From positions 3,232,001-3,296,000 of the forward strand of contig OZ250150.1 of the NCBI GenBank assembly GCA_965237675.1: a DNA stretch of 64,000 bases. Direction: 5' to 3'. The stretch comes from Candidatus Latescibacterota bacterium (GTDB lineage: Bacteria > Latescibacterota > UBA2968 > GCA-2709665). The notes under the pieces are model-generated. The model had not been told where the DNA came from, searched no databases, and saw only the letters and a list, made by a program, of their open reading frames with translations. A program made the translations under genes and the position numbers. Within the stretch, counting starts at the first letter, position 1. Every line of letters begins with the position of its first letter. Below, in pieces: positions 1,187-29,827 of this stretch.

Positions 1187-2161
1187 ATGAGACGAGTATT
1201 ACTGGTTTTTCCGTTGATCCTGCTCACCCACCTGGTTCTCGGAAACAAATCTGTTCTGGCGCAACCCGGCGTGAGTTGACGTCGTCCCGTGCTCCCGGGC
1301 GGGAGAATGCTCCAGGGCAGTCTGATTACCCAGGATCTTTTCGTTCTGAGCGTGAATTACGAGTATGAGTTTCTGGGCGATGCGATGTTTGGTACAGGGC
1401 CGATCCCCAACGTCAACCAGGAAGTCACCAGCATTTCAACGGTGTCGGTATTCGCAAGTTATGGGGTCAAGGAATGGTTCGGCGCCGCCGTGGTTCTTCC
1501 GTTTCGGTCCATAACCAACGACAAATTTCTTCTTCCAGGTCAGTACGACAACCAGTATCTGGGCGGCGATTATGTCCGGCATGCCGCCGGTCTCGGCGAC
1601 GTTGTTCTGATGTTGAACTTTGCCCCTCCTCTGCCGGAAGCATTGCCCGGGCTGCTTTTTTCGGCAGGTGTCAAGCTCGCGAACGGGTCGACCCATGCGG
1701 TCGATGAGTATGACCAGCGGTTCGCCGACTTACTGCAGGTGGGTTCCGGCAGCATGGACCCCATTTTCTCCGTAAGTCTGTCGCGCGACTTCAATAACCT
1801 GTTTTTCTCCGGTATGCTGTTCACACGCATTATTTCACGCGAGAATGTATATGGCTACAAATACGGGAACGAGTTTCAGGGCATCTTTTCAATGGAATAT
1901 ATGCATGGGGACATGTTTATTGCGGGTTTCAGCCTGAACCACGTTCACACGGCTCGCGATTATTTCCAATATGGAAAAATCGCCCGAAAACGCGGGGGCA
2001 CCTGGCTCTATGTCGCGCCGAAGCTGGGCGTACGGGCAATGGAAAATTTGAGCCTGGAGGCGAGATTGCCGCTTCCCGTTTACCAGAAAGTGAACGAAAG
2101 CCAGCTAACCTCCGATTATCAGTTCCACGTGGGCGCCACGTATCATTTTTTGGCTCGATAA
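1187..2161 (+). CDS. Putative outer-membrane beta-barrel ('transporter'/MetA-phenol-degradation-like) protein with in-frame TGA at codon 31 (candidate selenoprotein)
   Basis: GGAGGAG RBS, ATG 1187 and signal peptide MRRVLLVFPLILL...VLA/Q are in the same frame as ORF 1289-2161. The only interruption is TGA 1277-1279. Body has GLGDV and LQVGSGSMD motifs, amphipathic strands and a C-terminal YHF. Confidence 0.7.
1280..1305 (+). promoter_or_regulatory. Candidate bacterial SECIS hairpin
   Basis: CTCCC-GGGC-GGGAG stem-loop (1292-1305) starts 12 nt after the UGA and has G in the apical loop. Confidence 0.5.
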
Positions 2162-5221: not shown

Positions 5222-6616
5222 ATGAGCAAGACCAAGATGTGGGGCCCAGAGGCGTTCTGGGGTATGGACTACGACTGGGATCCCCAGTGGTTATTGACGC
5301 CTGAGCAGGAAGCGCTCCAGGCGAAACTGATCGAACTCTGCCGGACAACGCTGCGGAATAACGCTGTCGAGAGCGATCGGAACCTGGTGTTTCCGCGGAA
5401 GAACTTCGAGGCGCTGGCTTCGCTGGGACTGCTGGGATTGATTGTGCCCGGGGAATGGGGAGGTCTGGGGGAGAACCATACGTGCACGGCGATGGTGGTG
5501 GAGACGCTTGCGCGATACGGTTGCGCCAGTACGGCGATGTGTTACACCATGCACATCGGCGCCGTGGCCGCGTCCATGTTCCGGGCGCACGACAACCCGA
5601 CGATTCAGGACTTGATGAAACGCCTCGACAGAGATGTCTTGGTGGGCACGTTATCCTATTCGGACCCCGAGACGGGTTCTCATTTCTGGTATCCGATTTC
5701 GTCGGGGGCCGAGCGGGTGGCGGGAGGCTGGAAGGTGCGCAAGAAGGCGTCGTGGACGACATCCGCGGGTTTTGCCGACTGGTACATCGTGCAGACGACG
5801 AGTCCGGATTTCGGAGGGGACTATTCAGATCTGTCCTGCTTTCTCGTGATGGCCGACGAGGTGAAAGCGGAGCCGTCCCTCTGGGATGGTCTGGGATTGC
5901 GGGGGAATCAGTCCGGCACGCTGGAGGTCGACAACGTGACGATGCCGGAGGACAGACTGGTGGGGCCCGTGGGCGACGGAGCGAACTCCAACGACGAGAC
6001 GGTGGATCCGTTTTTCCTGTTGTGCTCATCGGCATGCTGGAACGGGATTTCATTGGGGATGATCGATATCGCCAGGCGACACACAACAGCCAAACGGCAT
6101 GAGGATGTGGGCATGCGGGTGGCGGACTATCCCACGATCCAGGATTATGTGGGCGAGGCCGTGATCGATACCAATACCTCCCGTTCCTTTGTCTACCTGA
6201 TGGCCAGTGCGATGGACGATGTCACGAATCAGTGCGACTGGTCGATCCACGCGGATCTCTCGTGTATGCCGAGGTCACAGGTGCTGCACTGGATGTGGCA
6301 GGTGAAGTTCACGGCGGCAAAGAATGTGGCGAACGTCTCCGACAAGATGCTCCATGCGTGCGGCGGAACGGGGTACAAACCCGCTCTGGGTATCGAACGT
6401 TATCTGCGTGACGGCAAGGCGGGGTGGGTGATGGGGCCCACCAACGAGATCCTCCGCCAGTTTGTGGGCAAGAGCGTGTTGCTGGGATTCGACTCGCTGG
6501 ACTATTGGAACCAGTCCGTGAACGAGCGAATACTGAGGAACGAACTCAAGAAGATGGACGGCGAGAAAAAGAAGAAACTCGCACGGGAGCTTCTGGCTGA
6601 GGCCGATGAGGGGTGA
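5222..6616 (+). CDS. Acyl-CoA dehydrogenase-fold flavoprotein (possible flavin-dependent monooxygenase)
   Basis: GLLGLIVPGEWGGLG, SDPETGSH, KKASWTTSA, GLRGNQSG, ACGGTGY...IERYLRD. GGGAGG RBS before ATG 5222. Confidence 0.85.
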   Translation: MSKTKMWGPEAFWGMDYDWDPQWLLTPEQEALQAKLIELCRTTLRNNAVESDRNLVFPRKNFEALASLGLLGLIVPGEWGGLGENHTCTAMVVETLARYGCASTAMCYTMHIGAVAASMFRAHDNPTIQDLMKRLDRDVLVGTLSYSDPETGSHFWYPISSGAERVAGGWKVRKKASWTTSAGFADWYIVQTTSPDFGGDYSDLSCFLVMADEVKAEPSLWDGLGLRGNQSGTLEVDNVTMPEDRLVGPVGDGANSNDETVDPFFLLCSSACWNGISLGMIDIARRHTTAKRHEDVGMRVADYPTIQDYVGEAVIDTNTSRSFVYLMASAMDDVTNQCDWSIHADLSCMPRSQVLHWMWQVKFTAAKNVANVSDKMLHACGGTGYKPALGIERYLRDGKAGWVMGPTNEILRQFVGKSVLLGFDSLDYWNQSVNERILRNELKKMDGEKKKKLARELLAEADEG

Positions 6617-8949
6617 TGCCTGCAAACGTCCAAACGATGGGGTCAGGATTGTTGAGATGGTCCCCCGGCAGGGAGCGCTACCGGGTGCCGGGCGGTGGGG
6701 CGATCGCCCTGGCGCTGGCACCGGGCGATCGGTTGGAGGTCGTGGACGTGGAGGGACGCCAGCGCTGCGAACTGGGCGTTTTCGGTCCGGATGGGAGTGC
6801 AGACGCGTCGCGGCTGGGTCTCCGTGCAGATGGCACGATAGCGGGTTTCGCGGCCGCGCTTGAGCGCGGGAACGAGAGCGCGCAGGCTGCTGCCGCGACA
6901 CTGCGGCGGAGGGGCATCGATCTGGCGGACGCGCCGGCGGTACAGGTCTTCGGCGGAGAGACGGTAGCAGGCGCCGAAGCGTGTTTCGCGGCCCTGCGGG
7001 ATGCCGTATGCGTGATTGCGGCGCCCGGCGGCCCGATGAGGGCAGATGCCCAGGATCCCCCCACGGACCTGGAGGTGGTGGTCAGGCGTACGCTTGCCCA
7101 AATGAAGGAACGCCCGCCGCTTCCCGCGCCCCTGGGAGACCTGCGTCTCGATTTGGAGGTGGACAGGGCGTCGGCAATCGCCTACGAGGTGAAGGCCGGG
7201 GAATACATCCAGGTCATTGACGTGGCGGGTCGCCAGTGTTCCGACTTTCTGGCATTCGACAGCAGACAACTGCAACGTGGGGTGGAACGAGGGTTGGATG
7301 CGACCACAACGCGGACGCTGACGGGCGCCGCCTATCCCGGCCCGGGCCTGTATTCGAAGTTTTACGATCAGGATATGCGGCCGCTGGTCGAAGTCGTTCG
7401 AGATACGGTGGGACGACACGATACGTTTGCGCTTGCGTGCACCGCGAAATATTACGAGGATATGGGGTATCCGGGCCACGTCAATTGTACGGACAACTTT
7501 AACGCGGCATTGGACCCGTACACAATACAGCCCCGGCGTGGCTGGCCCGCGGTGAATTTTTTTTACAATACGAGAATCGACCAGGATAACGTCCTGGTCA
7601 TGGACGAGCCCTGGTCTCGCCCGGGCGACCACGTACTTTTAAGAGCATTGACCGACCTGGTCTGCCTATCGTCCGCGTGTCCTGACGATATCGATCCCGC
7701 CAACGGCTGGGACCCGACGGAGATCCAGGTCCGCGTCTACCCCGAGCGGTACCGGTTTTCCAGAGGGATCGCGCACAGAATGACCCCAGACGCCGAGCCG
7801 AGGTTGACCAGGGAGACGGCGTTCCACGCGCGTACCTCGGCCATGACACGCGATTTCGAGGAGTATCGCGGCTACTGGCTGCCGTCGCGTTTTACCGCGA
7901 GCGGGGTCGTGGAGGAATACTACGCCTGCCGCGAGTCTGCGGTTGTGATCGATCTCTCCGCGCTTCGAAAGTTCGAAGTCCTGGGGCCGGATGCCGAGGC
8001 GCTGTTGCAGCATACGCTCACGCGCGACGTTCGCAGGCTTTCGGTTGGGCAGGTGACGTATTCGGCGATGTGTTACGAAACGGGCGGGGTGCTGGACGAC
8101 GGCACCCTGTTTCGGCTGGGATCTGAAAATTTCCGCTGGATCTGCGGCGATGATTATGGCGGTACGTGGCTGCGTGAGCAGGCAGGTCGGCTGGGTCTGC
8201 GTGTATGGGTGAGGAACTCGACCGATCAACTCCACAATCTTGCCGTGCAGGGTCCCGACAGCCGGGATATCTTGCGCAAAGTCATCTGGACGCCTCCGTC
8301 CCGCCCTTCGCTGGATGAATTGGGCTGGTTCCGTTTTACGGTGGGCCGAATGGGTGACGACAGCGGCCCGGCGGTGGTGGTTTCCAGGACGGGCTATACA
8401 GGCGAACTGGGTTATGAGATCTGGTGCCATCCCGACGACGCGCTGCGGGTATGGGATGGCGTCTGGGAGGCGGGTCAACCGCACGGCCTTGCCCCGATGG
8501 GACTGGAAGCCCTGGACGTGCTGCGGATCGAGGCGGGGCTGGTTTTTGCGGGCTGTGAGTTTGACGATCAGACGGATCCGTTCGAGGCGGGCATTGGCTT
8601 TACAGTTCCTCTCAAACGCAAGCACGAAGATTTCGTCGGTAGAGAGGCGCTGGTTCGCAGGCAGGCGCATCCGGAACGGGTGCTGGTGGGGCTGGAGGTG
8701 TCCGGAAACGAACCCGCCGGTACCGGCGATGACGTCTACGATGGGCGCGGTCGTGTGGGCGTGATTACCAGCGGCACCCGTTCGCCCATTCTGCGTAAGA
8801 ATATCGCGCTTTGCCGCATCGCGGTCGGGTACGCCAGGAATGGCGTTGAAGTGGAGGTGGGAAGGCTGGACGGCCACCAGAAGCGTATCCCCGCCCGGGT
8901 GGTGCGGTTTCCGTTTTACGATCCGGGGAAGACCCGGCCGCGTTCCTGA
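6613..8949 (+). CDS. tdm: Trimethylamine N-oxide demethylase (DUF1989 + GcvT-like aminomethyltransferase)
   Basis: N-terminal DUF1989 motifs (GRQCSDF, GRHDTFALAC, GHVNCTDN, SACPDDID) fused to a GcvT domain (DLSALRKFEV, SRTGYTGELGYE, LRIEAGL). 778 aa, methylamine context. Confidence 0.88.
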   Translation: MMPANVQTMGSGLLRWSPGRERYRVPGGGAIALALAPGDRLEVVDVEGRQRCELGVFGPDGSADASRLGLRADGTIAGFAAALERGNESAQAAAATLRRRGIDLADAPAVQVFGGETVAGAEACFAALRDAVCVIAAPGGPMRADAQDPPTDLEVVVRRTLAQMKERPPLPAPLGDLRLDLEVDRASAIAYEVKAGEYIQVIDVAGRQCSDFLAFDSRQLQRGVERGLDATTTRTLTGAAYPGPGLYSKFYDQDMRPLVEVVRDTVGRHDTFALACTAKYYEDMGYPGHVNCTDNFNAALDPYTIQPRRGWPAVNFFYNTRIDQDNVLVMDEPWSRPGDHVLLRALTDLVCLSSACPDDIDPANGWDPTEIQVRVYPERYRFSRGIAHRMTPDAEPRLTRETAFHARTSAMTRDFEEYRGYWLPSRFTASGVVEEYYACRESAVVIDLSALRKFEVLGPDAEALLQHTLTRDVRRLSVGQVTYSAMCYETGGVLDDGTLFRLGSENFRWICGDDYGGTWLREQAGRLGLRVWVRNSTDQLHNLAVQGPDSRDILRKVIWTPPSRPSLDELGWFRFTVGRMGDDSGPAVVVSRTGYTGELGYEIWCHPDDALRVWDGVWEAGQPHGLAPMGLEALDVLRIEAGLVFAGCEFDDQTDPFEAGIGFTVPLKRKHEDFVGREALVRRQAHPERVLVGLEVSGNEPAGTGDDVYDGRGRVGVITSGTRSPILRKNIALCRIAVGYARNGVEVEVGRLDGHQKRIPARVVRFPFYDPGKTRPRS

Positions 8950-9066
8950 TTGCGAAGCAACTTGCAAGTGCCGTCACGGAACGCCCGCCCGCCCCGTTTG
9001 AGGCCGCCGCGTGGCCCGCGGCGGTTGGCGCCGTATGCGACATTCCTCGCAGGAAAGGGGCATGGA

Positions 9067-9555
9067 ATGGCGTTAGATCCAATGGAGCAACGGCGGATTA
9101 TGGGTTGTTTTGCAACCGGCGTGACCGTTGTGACGACGGTTTCGGGCGGCGAGACCCGAGGGATGACAGCCAATGCGGTAACCTCGCTGTCCCTGGATCC
9201 TCCGCTGGTGATGGTGGCGGTGGACAAGGACGCGCAGATGCACGGGTACTTGAGGGGAAGCCGGTATTTTGCATTGAATATTTTAAGCGAGGACCAGGAA
9301 GCGCTCTCCACGCAATTTGCGCGCCCCGGAACCAAGGATTTTTCGAACGTGCCGACAACGACGGTTCGTACCGGGGCGCCGGTGTTCGTGGAGGCCCTCG
9401 GTTACGTGGAGTGTCGGCTCGTGGACGTATTGCGGGCTGGCGATCACGATATTTTCGTTGGAGAGATTGTGGCGGGCGATGCGGGGGACGGTCTTCCGCT
9501 GTTGTTTTACCGGGGAAAGTATCGGCGGATGATTGACGACGCGCCGCACGTCTGA
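9067..9555 (+). CDS. Flavin reductase (HpaC/DszD-like)
   Basis: FATGVTVVT, GMTANAVTSLSLDPPLV, AGDHDIFVGE, PLLFYRGKY. Confidence 0.92.
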   Translation: MALDPMEQRRIMGCFATGVTVVTTVSGGETRGMTANAVTSLSLDPPLVMVAVDKDAQMHGYLRGSRYFALNILSEDQEALSTQFARPGTKDFSNVPTTTVRTGAPVFVEALGYVECRLVDVLRAGDHDIFVGEIVAGDAGDGLPLLFYRGKYRRMIDDAPHV

Positions 9556-9609
9556 TGCATTTTCATCGCATATGCGATTGCTTTCTTCAAGTTCATACGG
9601 GGGATAGAT

Positions 9610-11004
9610 ATGGATAACGAACTCAGTGCGTTGACCGTCATTTTTACCGAGTTCTATTACTGGGTATGTATTGTACTCATGTTCCTGATCCACGTCGGCT
9701 TCTGTCTATACGAAGTGGGTGTGTCCAGGCGGAAAAACATGATGCACACCCTGATGAAAAACGCAATGCTGATTCCCCTGGTGACCGTGACGTTCTATTT
9801 TTTCGGGTGGTGGATCTATTTTGCAGTGCAAAACGGTCCGGGTATCACGGGCGGGCTGATTGAAGCCGCATGGGCTGCGCCCTGGAATGAACTGATGGGC
9901 ACCCATATGGGCGGCAAACCGCATAGTGAGGGGTTGACAAAGGCGGATACGGCTCTCTGGGCGCGGTTGAACGGCGTGTTCTGGGCGGCGTTCCTGCTGT
10001 TTTCCTGGACGGCGGGTTCGATTCTATCGGGCGCGGTGATTGAGCGCATCCGATCCAGCGCGTTCTGGATTTTTGCCGTGTTGGTGGGTTCCATCACGTG
10101 GGTGATCGACGCGGCCTGGGGATGGTCGGCCGACGGGTGGATGGTGCAGGTACTGGGGTATCACGACGCGTATGCGTCGGGCGTGATCCACGCCATCTGT
10201 GGCGGATCCGCGCTGGCGATTCTGTATCACCTGGGACCGCGCATCGGCCGGTTCAAGCCGGACGGCGCCCCGAGGAATTTCCCTCCGCACAACACCTGGC
10301 TGGTGATTATCGGACTGTTCCTGATCTATACGGGATTCTGGGGCTTTTATGCGGCTTGCAACGTGCCCATTATGGATATCGATCCCTCCGCCGACCGGGC
10401 TTTCTTTTCGGCAACCACGATTTATCTGACCGCGACGACGTTGAGCGCCATTACCTTCAACTTCCTGATGTCGCTCGCAGGTGGATTGATGATGGGGTAT
10501 TTCGTGTCCAAGGGCGATCCGTACTGGACATTTTCGGGCGGATTGGCGGGCATCATCACGGCGTCGGCGGGAAACGATCTGTACCATCCGATGCAGGCGC
10601 TTCTCATCGGCGCATTCGGTACGTTCTGCATTTACAAGTTGCACAATTGGGTCGAACGCCGTTTCAGAATTGACGATGCCGTGGGGGCCGTTGCCGTGCA
10701 TGGTTATGCCGGGGTGATCGGGGTGATTGTCGCAGGATTCGTACTCTGGGGGTATCCGGGTGCGAACCCCGCGTACGCCCCGATTACGCCGTGGGGACAG
10801 ACCCTAGGCGCCGTCATTATGTTTTTCGTGCTGGGTTTTCTACCTTGTTACGTCGTGGGGGCAATCCTCAAAAAGCTCGGGGTTCTCCGCATCCCGCGGC
10901 GAGTTGAACTGGCGGGTATGGATCACCGGACGATCGAGAACGAAACGGCGGATGCGAGCGATCTCGTTCAGCTCGAAATTGAGGAAGCGCAAGGAGGAAA
11001 CTAG
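9610..11004 (+). CDS. amt: Ammonium/methylammonium transporter (Amt family)
   Basis: SGAVIERI, YHDAYASGVIH, LGPRIGRF, IDDAVGAVAVHG. About 11 TM helices. Confidence 0.9.
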   Translation: MDNELSALTVIFTEFYYWVCIVLMFLIHVGFCLYEVGVSRRKNMMHTLMKNAMLIPLVTVTFYFFGWWIYFAVQNGPGITGGLIEAAWAAPWNELMGTHMGGKPHSEGLTKADTALWARLNGVFWAAFLLFSWTAGSILSGAVIERIRSSAFWIFAVLVGSITWVIDAAWGWSADGWMVQVLGYHDAYASGVIHAICGGSALAILYHLGPRIGRFKPDGAPRNFPPHNTWLVIIGLFLIYTGFWGFYAACNVPIMDIDPSADRAFFSATTIYLTATTLSAITFNFLMSLAGGLMMGYFVSKGDPYWTFSGGLAGIITASAGNDLYHPMQALLIGAFGTFCIYKLHNWVERRFRIDDAVGAVAVHGYAGVIGVIVAGFVLWGYPGANPAYAPITPWGQTLGAVIMFFVLGFLPCYVVGAILKKLGVLRIPRRVELAGMDHRTIENETADASDLVQLEIEEAQGGN

Positions 11005-27108: not shown

Positions 27109-27164
27109 GTGACTAAGCGAGTGACCAACTCCACAGAGCTTGGTCACTCGTGAAGTGACCAAGC
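27109..27164. repeat. Four GTGACYAA motifs (three direct, one inverted) forming a hairpin between brxC and pglXI
   Basis: Copies at 27109, 27121 and 27155, inverted copy at 27138-27147. CGAGTGACCAA/TTGGTCACTCG is a perfect 11-bp stem. Confidence 0.7.
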
Positions 27165-28139
27165 TGAGACACAAGACACCAGCAAGGATTATGAAGATGA
27201 AAGAAAACAGTTTGTTCGACTCGCTGCTTGAAGAGCCGCAGAAGCCCTCCGGTCCGGTGAAATGCCTTGGCATGAACTTTGAAAACCACGAGGCCCGCCG
27301 CGCTCACTTCACTGAGGAACTGCGCAAGAAGTTACAGGACCCCGAGTTCCGCAAGATCGAAGGCTTTCCCATCGGTAGAGACGAGGACATCCTGGAACTG
27401 AGCGATCCGCCGTACTACACCGCCTGTCCGAACCCGTGGATCGCCGACTTCATCGCCGAGTGGGAGGCACAGAAGCCGGAACAGCCCGATGGCTACCCCT
27501 ATCACCGTGAGCCTTTTGCGGCCGATGTGAGCGAGGGCAAAAACGATCCAATTTACAAGGCGCATTCCTATCATACCAAGGTGCCCTATAAGGCCATCAT
27601 GCGTTACATCCTCCACTACACGCAGCCGGGAGATATAGTGTTTGACGGATTCTGTGGTACCGGTATGACGGGCGTGGCGGCGCAGATGTCCGGCGACCGC
27701 GAAGTGGTCATGTCGCTTGGCTACCAAGTGAAGTCGGACGGGACCATTTTGCAGGAAGAGACGGATGAAGATGGCAATAAGTTTTGGCGACCGTTTTCAA
27801 GACTGGGCGAACGCCGAGCGATTCTCAATGATCTATCCCCAGCAGCAACTTTTATCACGTACAACTATAACAGTCCAATCAATCCATCGTCCTTCGAACG
27901 CCAAACCAATCGAATTCTCAACGATGTCGAGAAAGAACTTGGTTGGATGTATGAAACAAGACACACCGACGGTTCGCTATGCAACGTAGATTATTTTGTC
28001 TGGAGCGAAGTTTTTACTTGCCCGTCTTGTGCGGCACAATTGGTTTTTTCCGAAATGGCACTCGAGGGTGATACAGGGCGAGTGCGGAAGGAACTGAAGT
28101 GCAAATCATGCAACAGCGAAATGCAAAAGAATGATTTAG

Positions 28140-29827
28140 CCTGAATAATTCACAAAAAAGGTAGTTTCCATACCCAAGTCATTGTATTATATTATGGTTA
28201 CGCAAATAACCTAATAACAATGAAACAGGAGGAAACTACCGTGGGAGTTCAAGATAAACATCACAGGTTGTCTTTCGCAAGTCTTTCTGGTAGGCAGGTA
28301 GAAGCCACGTTCGACGGGGGCGTGCTGACGACCGACGTCGGGGTGATGCTGCTTCGTGAGGTCGAGGCCAATGTCGGCATTTTGCATCGGATGGTTGCGG
28401 CGCTCACCGATCATCGACATCAAAGTTACGTACATCATTCGATGATGGACCTGATCAAACAACGTGTCTTTCAGATGGCCTGTGGGTATGAGGATGCGAA
28501 TGATTGCAAGACGTTACGCGAGGACCCCGGCTTCAAGGCGGCCTGTGATCGGTTGCCGTTGTCTGGCGCGGACCTGGCCAGTCAGCCCACGATGAGTCGG
28601 TTCGAGAACCGCATCAGCAGAACCGATTTGTATCGGATCGCCAAGGCCTTTGCGGATGTGTTTGTCGCCTCGTATGAGGAACCGCCGGAAGCCATTCTGT
28701 TGGACATCGATGACACCGAAGACAAGGTGCATGGGTCTCAACAGTTGTCGTTGTTCAATGCGTATTTCAATGGCTATTGCTACCAGCCCCTGCATATCTA
28801 TGAAGGCCAAACCGGCAAGTTGATCACGACGGTCTTGCGTCCTGGCAGGCGGCCTGCGGGTAAAGAGATCGTCACCATCCTCAAACGGGTGATCGCCTAC
28901 CTGCGTAAAGCCTGGCCCGACGTGGAGATCCTGTTACGTGGCGATGCGCATTTTTCGTGTCCGGAAGTGCACGTGTTGTGTGAGGAAGAAGATGTGTATT
29001 TTGTCCTCGGACAGAACGGCAACGCCAAACTCCTGCGGAAGGCACAGTCCTTGATAGACCAGGCCAAAACGCGGTATGCCGATTCCGGAGAAACCGTGCG
29101 CCTTTATCGCTGTTGGGCCTATCAGGCCGGCACCTGGGCGTGTCCACAACGCATCGTCTGCAAGGCGGAAGTGACACCGCAAGGTGTCAATATCCGATTC
29201 GTGGTCACCAACCTGAAGCGCGCCCAACCGTCATTCATCTACAAAACCGCCTATTGCACACGCGGCAGGATGGAAAACTTCATCAAAAATCACAAGACCT
29301 TTCTCCATTCCGATCGCACCTCTTGTCACACCTTCCAGGCCAATCACTTCCGTCTCTTTCTCCACAGCGCCGCCTATGTCCTGATGCACAGCCTGGCTGC
29401 AATCGGATTGCGCGGCACGAAGTGGACCAACGCACAGTTCAATACCCTGCAAAATCGTCTCTTGAAAGTCGCCGGGCGCGTTTGTGAGTTGAAAACTAAA
29501 ATCAAGTTCCATCTGCCAACGGCGTTTCCACTCAAACACCTTTATGGCAAGATCCTCTATAATCTGGCAACGGGTGTTCCATAACCCATCGACGTGCTGA
29601 CCCCGCCTTCACATTTGCATCGACCACCACCAAAGGTCATGGAGAAGTCTGTGCGCTTGACACGGGCATCGAGGTCAACCTGACGTCACGAGGCAAAGCA
29701 GGCGCCGCCCAAACGGCTTGAACACGCCAAATCCGTCACAGCCCATGCGCTTTCGTTTCTTGTCTCACTCGGAAGCTCTTTCTGCTTCCTTAAAATGCTC
29801 TATCTGACGATTCATGAATTAATCGGG
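28140..29827 (+). mobile_element. Complete IS1380-family insertion sequence (1688 bp)
   Basis: Terminal IRs CCTGAATAATTCA / TGAATTAATCGGG (11/13). TTAG target duplication at 28136-28139 and 29828-29831. Confidence 0.93.
28220..29584 (+). CDS. IS1380-family DDE transposase
   Basis: FDGGVLTTDVG, GYEDAND, LASQPTMSRFEN, LDIDDT..HGSQQ, RGDAHF, YCTRGRMENFIK. Confidence 0.95.
   Translation: MKQEETTVGVQDKHHRLSFASLSGRQVEATFDGGVLTTDVGVMLLREVEANVGILHRMVAALTDHRHQSYVHHSMMDLIKQRVFQMACGYEDANDCKTLREDPGFKAACDRLPLSGADLASQPTMSRFENRISRTDLYRIAKAFADVFVASYEEPPEAILLDIDDTEDKVHGSQQLSLFNAYFNGYCYQPLHIYEGQTGKLITTVLRPGRRPAGKEIVTILKRVIAYLRKAWPDVEILLRGDAHFSCPEVHVLCEEEDVYFVLGQNGNAKLLRKAQSLIDQAKTRYADSGETVRLYRCWAYQAGTWACPQRIVCKAEVTPQGVNIRFVVTNLKRAQPSFIYKTAYCTRGRMENFIKNHKTFLHSDRTSCHTFQANHFRLFLHSAAYVLMHSLAAIGLRGTKWTNAQFNTLQNRLLKVAGRVCELKTKIKFHLPTAFPLKHLYGKILYNLATGVP

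Follow-up and report, generated by a model that had tools for sequence, protein, structure and literature searches.

A probable selenocysteine at the mature N-terminus of a predicted outer-membrane beta-barrel in Latescibacterota and related bacteria

Here we describe a probable selenoprotein gene at positions 1187–2161 of a 64,000-nucleotide (nt) stretch of the genome of a Candidatus Latescibacterota bacterium (assembly GCA_965237675.1, contig OZ250150.1, positions 3,232,001 to 3,296,000; hereafter "the window", whose numbering is used unless another sequence is named). An earlier interpretation of this DNA, made from the letters alone and hereafter called the sequence-only reading, had proposed that the region encodes a barrel protein containing selenocysteine (Sec, U). 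We find that it is best read as one gene for an exported, predicted outer-membrane barrel of the COG4313/Phenol_MetA_deg type, in which the UGA at codon 31 would be decoded as Sec, and we put the probability of this reading at roughly 0.8, an estimate that covers the identity of the protein as a selenoprotein channel and not its substrate. We favor Sec at this codon because TGA is retained in all 45 DNA copies recovered, a downstream hairpin covaries, the genome encodes the Sec machinery, relatives carry cysteine (Cys) at the same column, and TGA otherwise serves this organism as a stop.

A single reading frame interrupted by UGA

The proposed coding sequence occupies 1187–2161 of the forward strand, as do all features given in this section, and consists of 324 codons followed by TAA, as delimited by the read-through translation, conservation and an AlphaFold2 model. 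A Shine-Dalgarno sequence (GGAGGAG, 1172–1178) can be read 8 nt upstream of ATG 1187, and the first 25 residues (MRRVLLVFPLILLTHLVLGNKSVLA; 1187–1261) look by eye like a signal peptide, with a basic n-region, a hydrophobic core and an A-x-A motif followed by Q, so that cleavage is predicted between VLA and Q. The mature N-terminal segment that follows (residues 26–50, 1262–1336), beginning QPGVS-U-RRPVLPGG, contains the invariant motif discussed below and is a putative lumen plug; the UGA assigned to Sec at residue 31 lies at 1277–1279. Next comes the core of a SECIS-like (Sec insertion sequence-like) hairpin, CUCCC-GGGC-GGGAG (1292–1305), whose apical loop GGGC spans 1297–1300. The remaining residues, 51–324 (1337–2158), form the 12-stranded beta-barrel body predicted from the model strands and a Foldseek comparison, and this body is free of Cys.

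The ATG, the leader, the TGA and a 290-codon barrel open reading frame (ORF) all share one frame. As called, this ORF runs from GTG 1289 to 2161, in frame with the TGA, and its GTG has neither a Shine-Dalgarno sequence nor a signal peptide. The read-through product has 324 residues and no Cys at all. The sequence-only reading is thus borne out in its structural claims, namely that a ribosome-binding site, ATG and 25-residue signal peptide are in frame with the barrel, that the only interruption is a TGA at codon 31 (mature QPGVS-U-RRP), that a GC stem-loop begins 12 nt after it, and that the alternative GTG start lacks both a ribosome-binding site and a signal peptide. Its expectation that gene callers would shorten the gene also holds, as all 15 of the closer database homologues begin 3' of the TGA. 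An alternative reading of G-V-S-U as a lipobox was tried and dropped, given that Gly at position −3 is atypical and that a clear A-x-A cleavage site followed by Q precedes it.

Conservation and translation of the in-frame TGA

Of 61 genomes searched (that of the window plus 60 relatives), 20 gave matches at E ≤ 0.001. All 15 genomes of the genus (the window's own plus 14) contain an orthologue at 85–94% identity together with a paralogue at about 52%, and two genomes of a second genus (G021 and G018) contain barrel relatives at 52–57% identity. One in-frame TGA was present in 33 rows of this search and missing from four weak or fragmentary ones; in the extracted DNA, all 33 copies, from 17 genomes, have the TGA inside an invariant G-V-S-U-R-R-P-V-L-P-G-G. 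A species-level scan (one genome per species) added 12 loci after the exclusion of two duplicates, all with TGA, from KSB1, Calditrichaceae, Marinimicrobia/Neomarinimicrobiota/Fidelibacterota and unclassified metagenome-assembled genomes. These encode proteins 37–55% identical to that of the window, with the motif AQGG-[VI]-[SN]-U-R-R-P-x-L-P. Altogether, TGA is found in 45 of 45 DNA copies, always within AQ-x-G-[VI]-[SN]-U-R-R-P-x-L-P, which answers in the affirmative the earlier question of whether homologues keep it. Two distant hits (in G050 and G054) that have signal peptides and no N-terminal Cys motif were set aside as ordinary family members.

Several patterns in the close copies speak to translation across the TGA. 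In the 33 copies, the leader starts with Met and retains a basic start, a hydrophobic core and the A-x-A motif followed by Q, while its sequence diverges and its insertions and deletions are of whole codons. The two Arg residues after the TGA are encoded variously (CGT CGT, CGC CGA, AGA CGT and AGG AGG, among others), and the codons of the preceding G-V-S vary as well, with the peptide fixed. At the site of GTG 1289, other copies read GTA, GTT, GTC, GCG, GCA, TCA, ATA, ATC, ATT or ACC. The synonymous codon changes and the variation of GTG 1289 indicate that the stretch around the TGA is translated in this frame and that no internal start is conserved.

A sequencing error at position 1277, one possible refutation that had been raised, was not found: contigs from four public runs, belonging to four studies, span 1277–1279 with no variant listed. 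In addition, a contig from an RNA library, derived from a relative with about 8% differences, spans 1166–2390 including the TGA, which is not proof of transcription.

Cysteine at the equivalent column of relatives

A profile search of 1.84 billion representative sequences gave 4449 hits at E ≤ 0.001, the best 150 of which were sorted with a pattern script and by eye. About 126 of these 150 have a two-Cys motif immediately behind the signal peptide, in forms such as Q-x-C-C-S-G-G-x-P, A-S-C-G-x-x-x-C-P and Q-T-C-S-C; about 20 are N-terminally truncated, which leaves the Sec column unreadable, and four deviate, with C-x-x-C (P0150), no motif (P0093), Pro (P0036) or Trp (P0086). We then aligned 13 Sec-type proteins with 115 Cys-type hits, leaving out truncated or fragmentary rows and some full-length rows that bear the motif. 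In this alignment, the Sec column holds Cys in 114 of the 115 Cys-type relatives, where it is the first Cys of the N-terminal two-Cys motif; the partner Cys follows at +1 in 82 relatives, +2 in 13 and +5 in 19, and the Sec-type rows have no second Cys. Pro at +6 is common to 120 of the 128 aligned rows.

Separately, four barrel relatives of about 400 residues (P0046, P0051, P0100 and P0119) start without a signal peptide and extend about 130 residues further at the C-terminus; their genes, too, may be mis-called and possibly of the Sec type.

A SECIS-like hairpin downstream of the UGA

Pairing was analyzed in the 45 sequences, 39 of them distinct, over a helix joining alignment columns 18–23 with 28–33. 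Across the 39 distinct sequences, 92.7% of the cells in this 6-base-pair (bp) helix form pairs. Three of its pairs are invariant and two covary, with the covarying sites at third codon positions: pair 21–30 is CG in 30 sequences, UA in 6, UG in 2 and AU in 1, and pair 18–33 is GC in 15, AU in 6, UA in 1 and GU in 1, being unpaired in 16 including the window copy. None of 500 shuffles matched the covariation score, and every slid register scored lower. The AT-rich copies of the Marinimicrobia type retain CUC...GGG.

Published constraints on bacterial SECIS elements are a loop of 3–9 nt with a G at either of the first two positions, a stem of 4–16 bp, a UGA-to-loop distance of 16–37 nt and a minimum free energy of −7.5 kcal/mol or lower (PMC13188914, section 5). 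The hairpin agrees with these in loop (GGGC, AGGU, AGGC, UGGA, GGGU, GGUC or CGGC across copies), stem (5–6 bp), spacing (17 nt) and energy (45 of 45 sequences at −7.5 kcal/mol or lower when the core is enforced, and −8.3 kcal/mol for the window core alone), which bears out the proposal that it is SECIS-like. Like the bacterial SECIS consensus, for which Escherichia coli fdhF is the paradigm, it is located inside the coding region immediately 3' of the UGA and has a 4-nt apical loop starting with G-G or N-G-G on a 5–6 bp upper stem. The fdhF element has a bulged U, whereas the helix here is very short and no bulged U was seen in it.

Selenocysteine machinery and the ordinary use of TGA

The genome of the window encodes the full set of Sec genes that the sequence-only reading had asked for (selA, selB, selC and selD), each scoring above curated cut-offs. 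The gene for tRNA-Sec (selC; 73.3 bits, anticodon TCA) is adjoined by selB (358 bits) and selA (561 bits), and selD (G000:C1:309559-310482) has one in-frame TGA, so that SelD of this genome is itself a selenoprotein. Of the 61 genomes searched, 56 gave a selB hit, among them every one of the 15 genomes of the genus and G021; no hit came from G018, whose genome is 80% complete.

TGA is also the commonest stop in the window, terminating 14 of the 30 longest non-overlapping ORFs. The NHL-repeat gene just upstream has a TGA stop (424–426), and 7 of 13 distant copies of the barrel gene themselves end with TGA. The window has 24 further long frames bridged by a TGA; the 12 that were scanned showed no Pfam domain across the TGA and represent neighboring genes or non-coding frames. 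Two such stretches deserve mention in their own right. At 6610–11001, genes for a GCV_T/DUF1989 protein, a flavin reductase and an ammonium transporter lie in one frame with ordinary TGA stops between them. At 27125–29581, the TGA-bridged frame consists of an N6_N4_Mtase fragment followed by a complete DDE transposase (DDE_Tnp_1_4, E = 1e-155), which may be an insertion sequence beside or within a methylase gene.

Predicted fold and family

An AlphaFold2 model built from the 128-row alignment reached a mean predicted local distance difference test score (pLDDT) of 89.2 and a predicted template modeling score of 0.83, with strands running from residue 51 to 322. Ahead of strand 1 it places a bridge at residues 30–31 and a helix at residues 38–44, with pLDDT values of 63–79 there. 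The top Foldseek match is the COG4313 channel Pput2725 (PDB 4RL8; E = 1.3e-11, template modeling scores 0.65/0.77), followed by FapF (5O65), and 6 of 12 relatives match PF13557 (Phenol_MetA_deg) weakly (best E = 1.1e-6). The model therefore suggests a 12-strand COG4313-like channel, similar to Pput2725 in size, in the number of strands and in having a segment ahead of strand 1. In Pput2725, the N-terminal residues, about 14 of them, fold into the lumen from the periplasmic side; the word cysteine does not occur in the paper on this channel (PMC4493636). By analogy, the Sec-bearing N-terminus of the window protein probably forms a lumen plug. It differs from Pput2725 in having an N-terminal Sec where its own relatives have a two-Cys motif, and from COG4313/PF13557 channels in that its gene neighbors encode a redoxin and beta-propellers rather than proteins of aromatic degradation.

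Two outer-membrane families are among the catalogued selenoproteins, the GSU2204 family/MtrB-PioB-type barrel (NF041027) and the FCYXU-type TonB-dependent receptor (NF049945) (PMC13188914, Table 1). Both resemble the present protein in being outer-membrane beta-barrels with a predicted Sec; they are unrelated families, and the window protein has no NCBIfam match. A COG4313-type barrel is not among the 119 selenoprotein families of that 2026 review (PMC13188914, Table 1). A full-text literature search likewise returned no description of this family, with supplementary files, which could hold one, lying outside the search.

Gene neighborhood

Two genes precede the barrel on the forward strand. 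The window opens with the 3' part of an NHL-repeat beta-propeller gene (1–426; Pfam NHL and TEN_NHL), which encodes 430 amino acids in full and starts upstream of the window. Downstream of it lies a gene for a TlpA-like periplasmic thiol:disulfide oxidoreductase (492–995) with an N-terminal membrane anchor, a W-C-K-T-C motif and matches to Pfam Redoxin and AhpC-TSA; its W-C-x-x-C is invariant in 11 aligned homologues. In 10 of 10 Sec loci (the window and all nine other non-paralogue loci examined), the gene immediately before the barrel encodes such a redoxin, so the link to a neighboring CxxC redoxin, noted before in this one locus, extends to synteny across loci.

Directly downstream of the barrel, a lipoprotein of about 350 residues is encoded in eight of the nine other Sec loci, and also beside the paralogue in the window's genome. 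It has an invariant Cys behind its signal peptide, is 40–52% identical across phyla and models as a 7-bladed propeller, for which a fold search returned generic 7-bladed propellers alone (YVTN, YncE) and no functional lead. In the window and in one other locus (L084), NHL propellers stand upstream in place of the lipoprotein propeller, and seven loci have an adjoining gene for an FG-GAP/ASPIC protein that bears a type IX secretion tail. The paralogue itself is a second Sec-barrel gene of the genome (G000:C1:3813921-3814893; about 6907–7878 on the minus strand of L056), 52% identical to the first and also reading U-R-R-P. The lipoprotein beta-propeller gene comes directly after it (L056 5820–6896), and no adjacent redoxin is present.

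Constant proximity of a TlpA-like W-C-x-x-C protein is a likeness between the Sec barrel and TlpA/CruR copper systems. In the TlpA-ScoI-PCuAC pathway, a TlpA-type reductase takes part in copper delivery. Among the Cys-type relatives of the barrel, three betaproteobacterial loci place it behind a DUF2946 gene and flanking a TlpA-like gene, one of them also with a PCuAC copper chaperone; other Cys-type loci feature TonB receptors, cytochromes or a NicO/DsbD-like protein together with a propeller, or are uninformative. DUF2946 corresponds to CruR, a copper-sensing upstream ORF at the head of copper-homeostasis operons, and AhpC_TSA genes are listed in CruR-headed operons (PMC9426467).

The spacer between redoxin and barrel contains a further element, a dispersed repeat of about 150 nt at 990–1150. 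It has at least 58 matches in the window's genome (40 of 179 candidates scored), and contig depth over it rises to 8473 versus about 60 in its flanks. Related strains lack it, joining position 988 to 1155 and 996 to 1166, and it looks like a MITE-type (miniature inverted-repeat transposable element) insertion into the operon.

Proposed mechanism and function

We propose that translation would begin at ATG 1187 and that, at the UGA, the hairpin at 1292–1305, with its G-rich loop 17 nt past this codon, would recruit SelB with Sec-tRNA(Sec). The Sec translocon would then export the protein and the signal peptide would be cleaved after VLA, after which the barrel would insert into the outer membrane and, judging from homology, the mature QPGVS-U-RRPVLPGG N-terminus would fold into the lumen. 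In this protein, the selenol takes the place of the first Cys of the family-wide N-terminal two-Cys motif and is the sole chalcogen side chain.

As to what the selenol does, thiophilic-metal or redox chemistry in the pore would be the most likely role, with a redox gate or a chalcogen relay as alternative functions. Stated more narrowly, a selenolate flanked by two arginines might provide a soft-ligand or nucleophile site in the pore that binds or passes on a thiophilic metal, e.g., Cu(I), and is kept reduced by the upstream redoxin, which would act on the selenol; this tentative assignment is plausible but somewhat short of even odds. A bolder and unlikely version is that the plug selenolate of this passive channel serves as a covalent catch-and-release site that forms transient Se-metal, Se-S or Se-Se bonds with its cargo within the pore, that the periplasmic TlpA-like reductase releases the cargo, that reducing power from the inner membrane rather than TonB drives uptake, and that the lipoprotein propeller caps or feeds the channel.

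Evidence against Sec decoding and alternative explanations

Several results weigh against the interpretation given here. For the hairpin, the window sequence folded by itself does not stand out (z = +0.5; 136 of 200 shuffles do equally well), the free optimum of the window copy is a competing hairpin, and the core hairpin is the free optimum in just 26 of 45 sequences, so that the element is supported by comparison rather than by energy; moreover, strict conservation of L-P-G-G would by itself fix much of the stem. For the Sec column, Cys is present in 114 of 115 aligned relatives, but two proteins have other residues, which matters because the sequence-only reading had named a non-Cys homologue as grounds for refutation. 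One is P0086, a fragment of 172 residues encoded on a 634-bp contig, with the sequence GVS-W-RRPILPGG; its Trp may be a TGA called under code 4, in which this codon is read as Trp. The other is P0036, at 31% identity across its entire length, with Pro at the column (E-I-G-P-R-R-M-T-L-P), so that one lineage manages without a chalcogen there. Within the U-R-R-P subfamily, no Cys form was found. Weighed against 114 Cys and 45 TGA, the two non-Cys proteins weaken the case for Sec without overturning it. As for fold and family, model confidence is lower in the segment of interest (pLDDT 63–79 over residues 31–50 and about 63 at residue 31), and the window protein has no Pfam hit and no NCBIfam family at E ≤ 1. 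A copper function is weakened further, as the 59 neighbor proteins scanned in Sec loci include no copper or mercury family and no DUF2946 or PCuAC, which sets these loci apart from TlpA/CruR copper systems, and the copper link comes solely from relatives that are 22–27% identical.

Some of these observations could be taken to mean that an ordinary near-cognate tRNA reads the UGA and inserts Trp, Cys or Arg, giving a full-length barrel without selenium: P0086 has Trp at the column, and the short hairpin is not the most stable fold of the window copy. Leaky read-through, however, would not keep TGA in every copy across phyla, as a sense codon would serve better, and it sits poorly with the near-universal Cys at this column in relatives, the covariation of the hairpin, the complete Sec machinery and the use of TGA as the commonest ordinary stop; we regard this explanation as highly unlikely. 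Equally little weight, in our judgment, attaches to the idea that the Sec codon serves chiefly as a switch that makes channel synthesis depend on selenium, with the residue itself of little chemical role. The UGA is indeed very early, so that failed decoding would abort cheaply, and P0036 copes with Pro, but in the relatives this column holds the leading Cys of a conserved motif, the S-U-R-R-P flanks are invariant and a thiol-disulfide reductase is adjacent in all 10 non-paralogue Sec loci examined, and for these reasons we favor chemistry at residue 31.

Gene callers treat the TGA as a genuine stop, as reflected in the starts of all 15 closer database homologues; on that view there would be either a 30-residue leader peptide followed by a separately initiated barrel without a signal, or a decaying pseudogene. 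With no signal peptide, though, a barrel cannot get to the outer membrane, and GTG 1289 is not conserved as a start, the Arg-Arg-Pro codons between it and the TGA evolve synonymously, and every copy, including the 52%-identical paralogue, preserves both the frame and the signal peptide, leaving this explanation with a very small chance. An error of sequencing or assembly at 1277–1279 is refuted, its probability being negligible, by the four runs with no variant listed there and by the same codon in separately assembled genomes of 14 further species of the genus. Sec at codon 31 of an exported barrel thus remains the reading we prefer.

Conclusions

Overall, our data point to an uncatalogued selenoprotein family, absent from the 2026 catalogue of 119 families, whose members are shortened by annotation. 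To our knowledge, almost every bacterial selenoprotein described so far is a redox enzyme of the cytoplasm or periplasm, and the family described here would place selenium in the outer membrane, on the predicted plug of a diffusion channel. The Cys-Cys, Cys-x-Cys, Cys-x4-Cys and single-Sec forms of one motif make up a natural series in which selenol can be compared with dithiol, and the three-gene module of redoxin, barrel and lipoprotein propeller offers a defined system for expression and testing. Because automatic annotation shortens members of the family, the selenoproteomes of Latescibacterota, KSB1 and Marinimicrobia-type bacteria would be under-counted.

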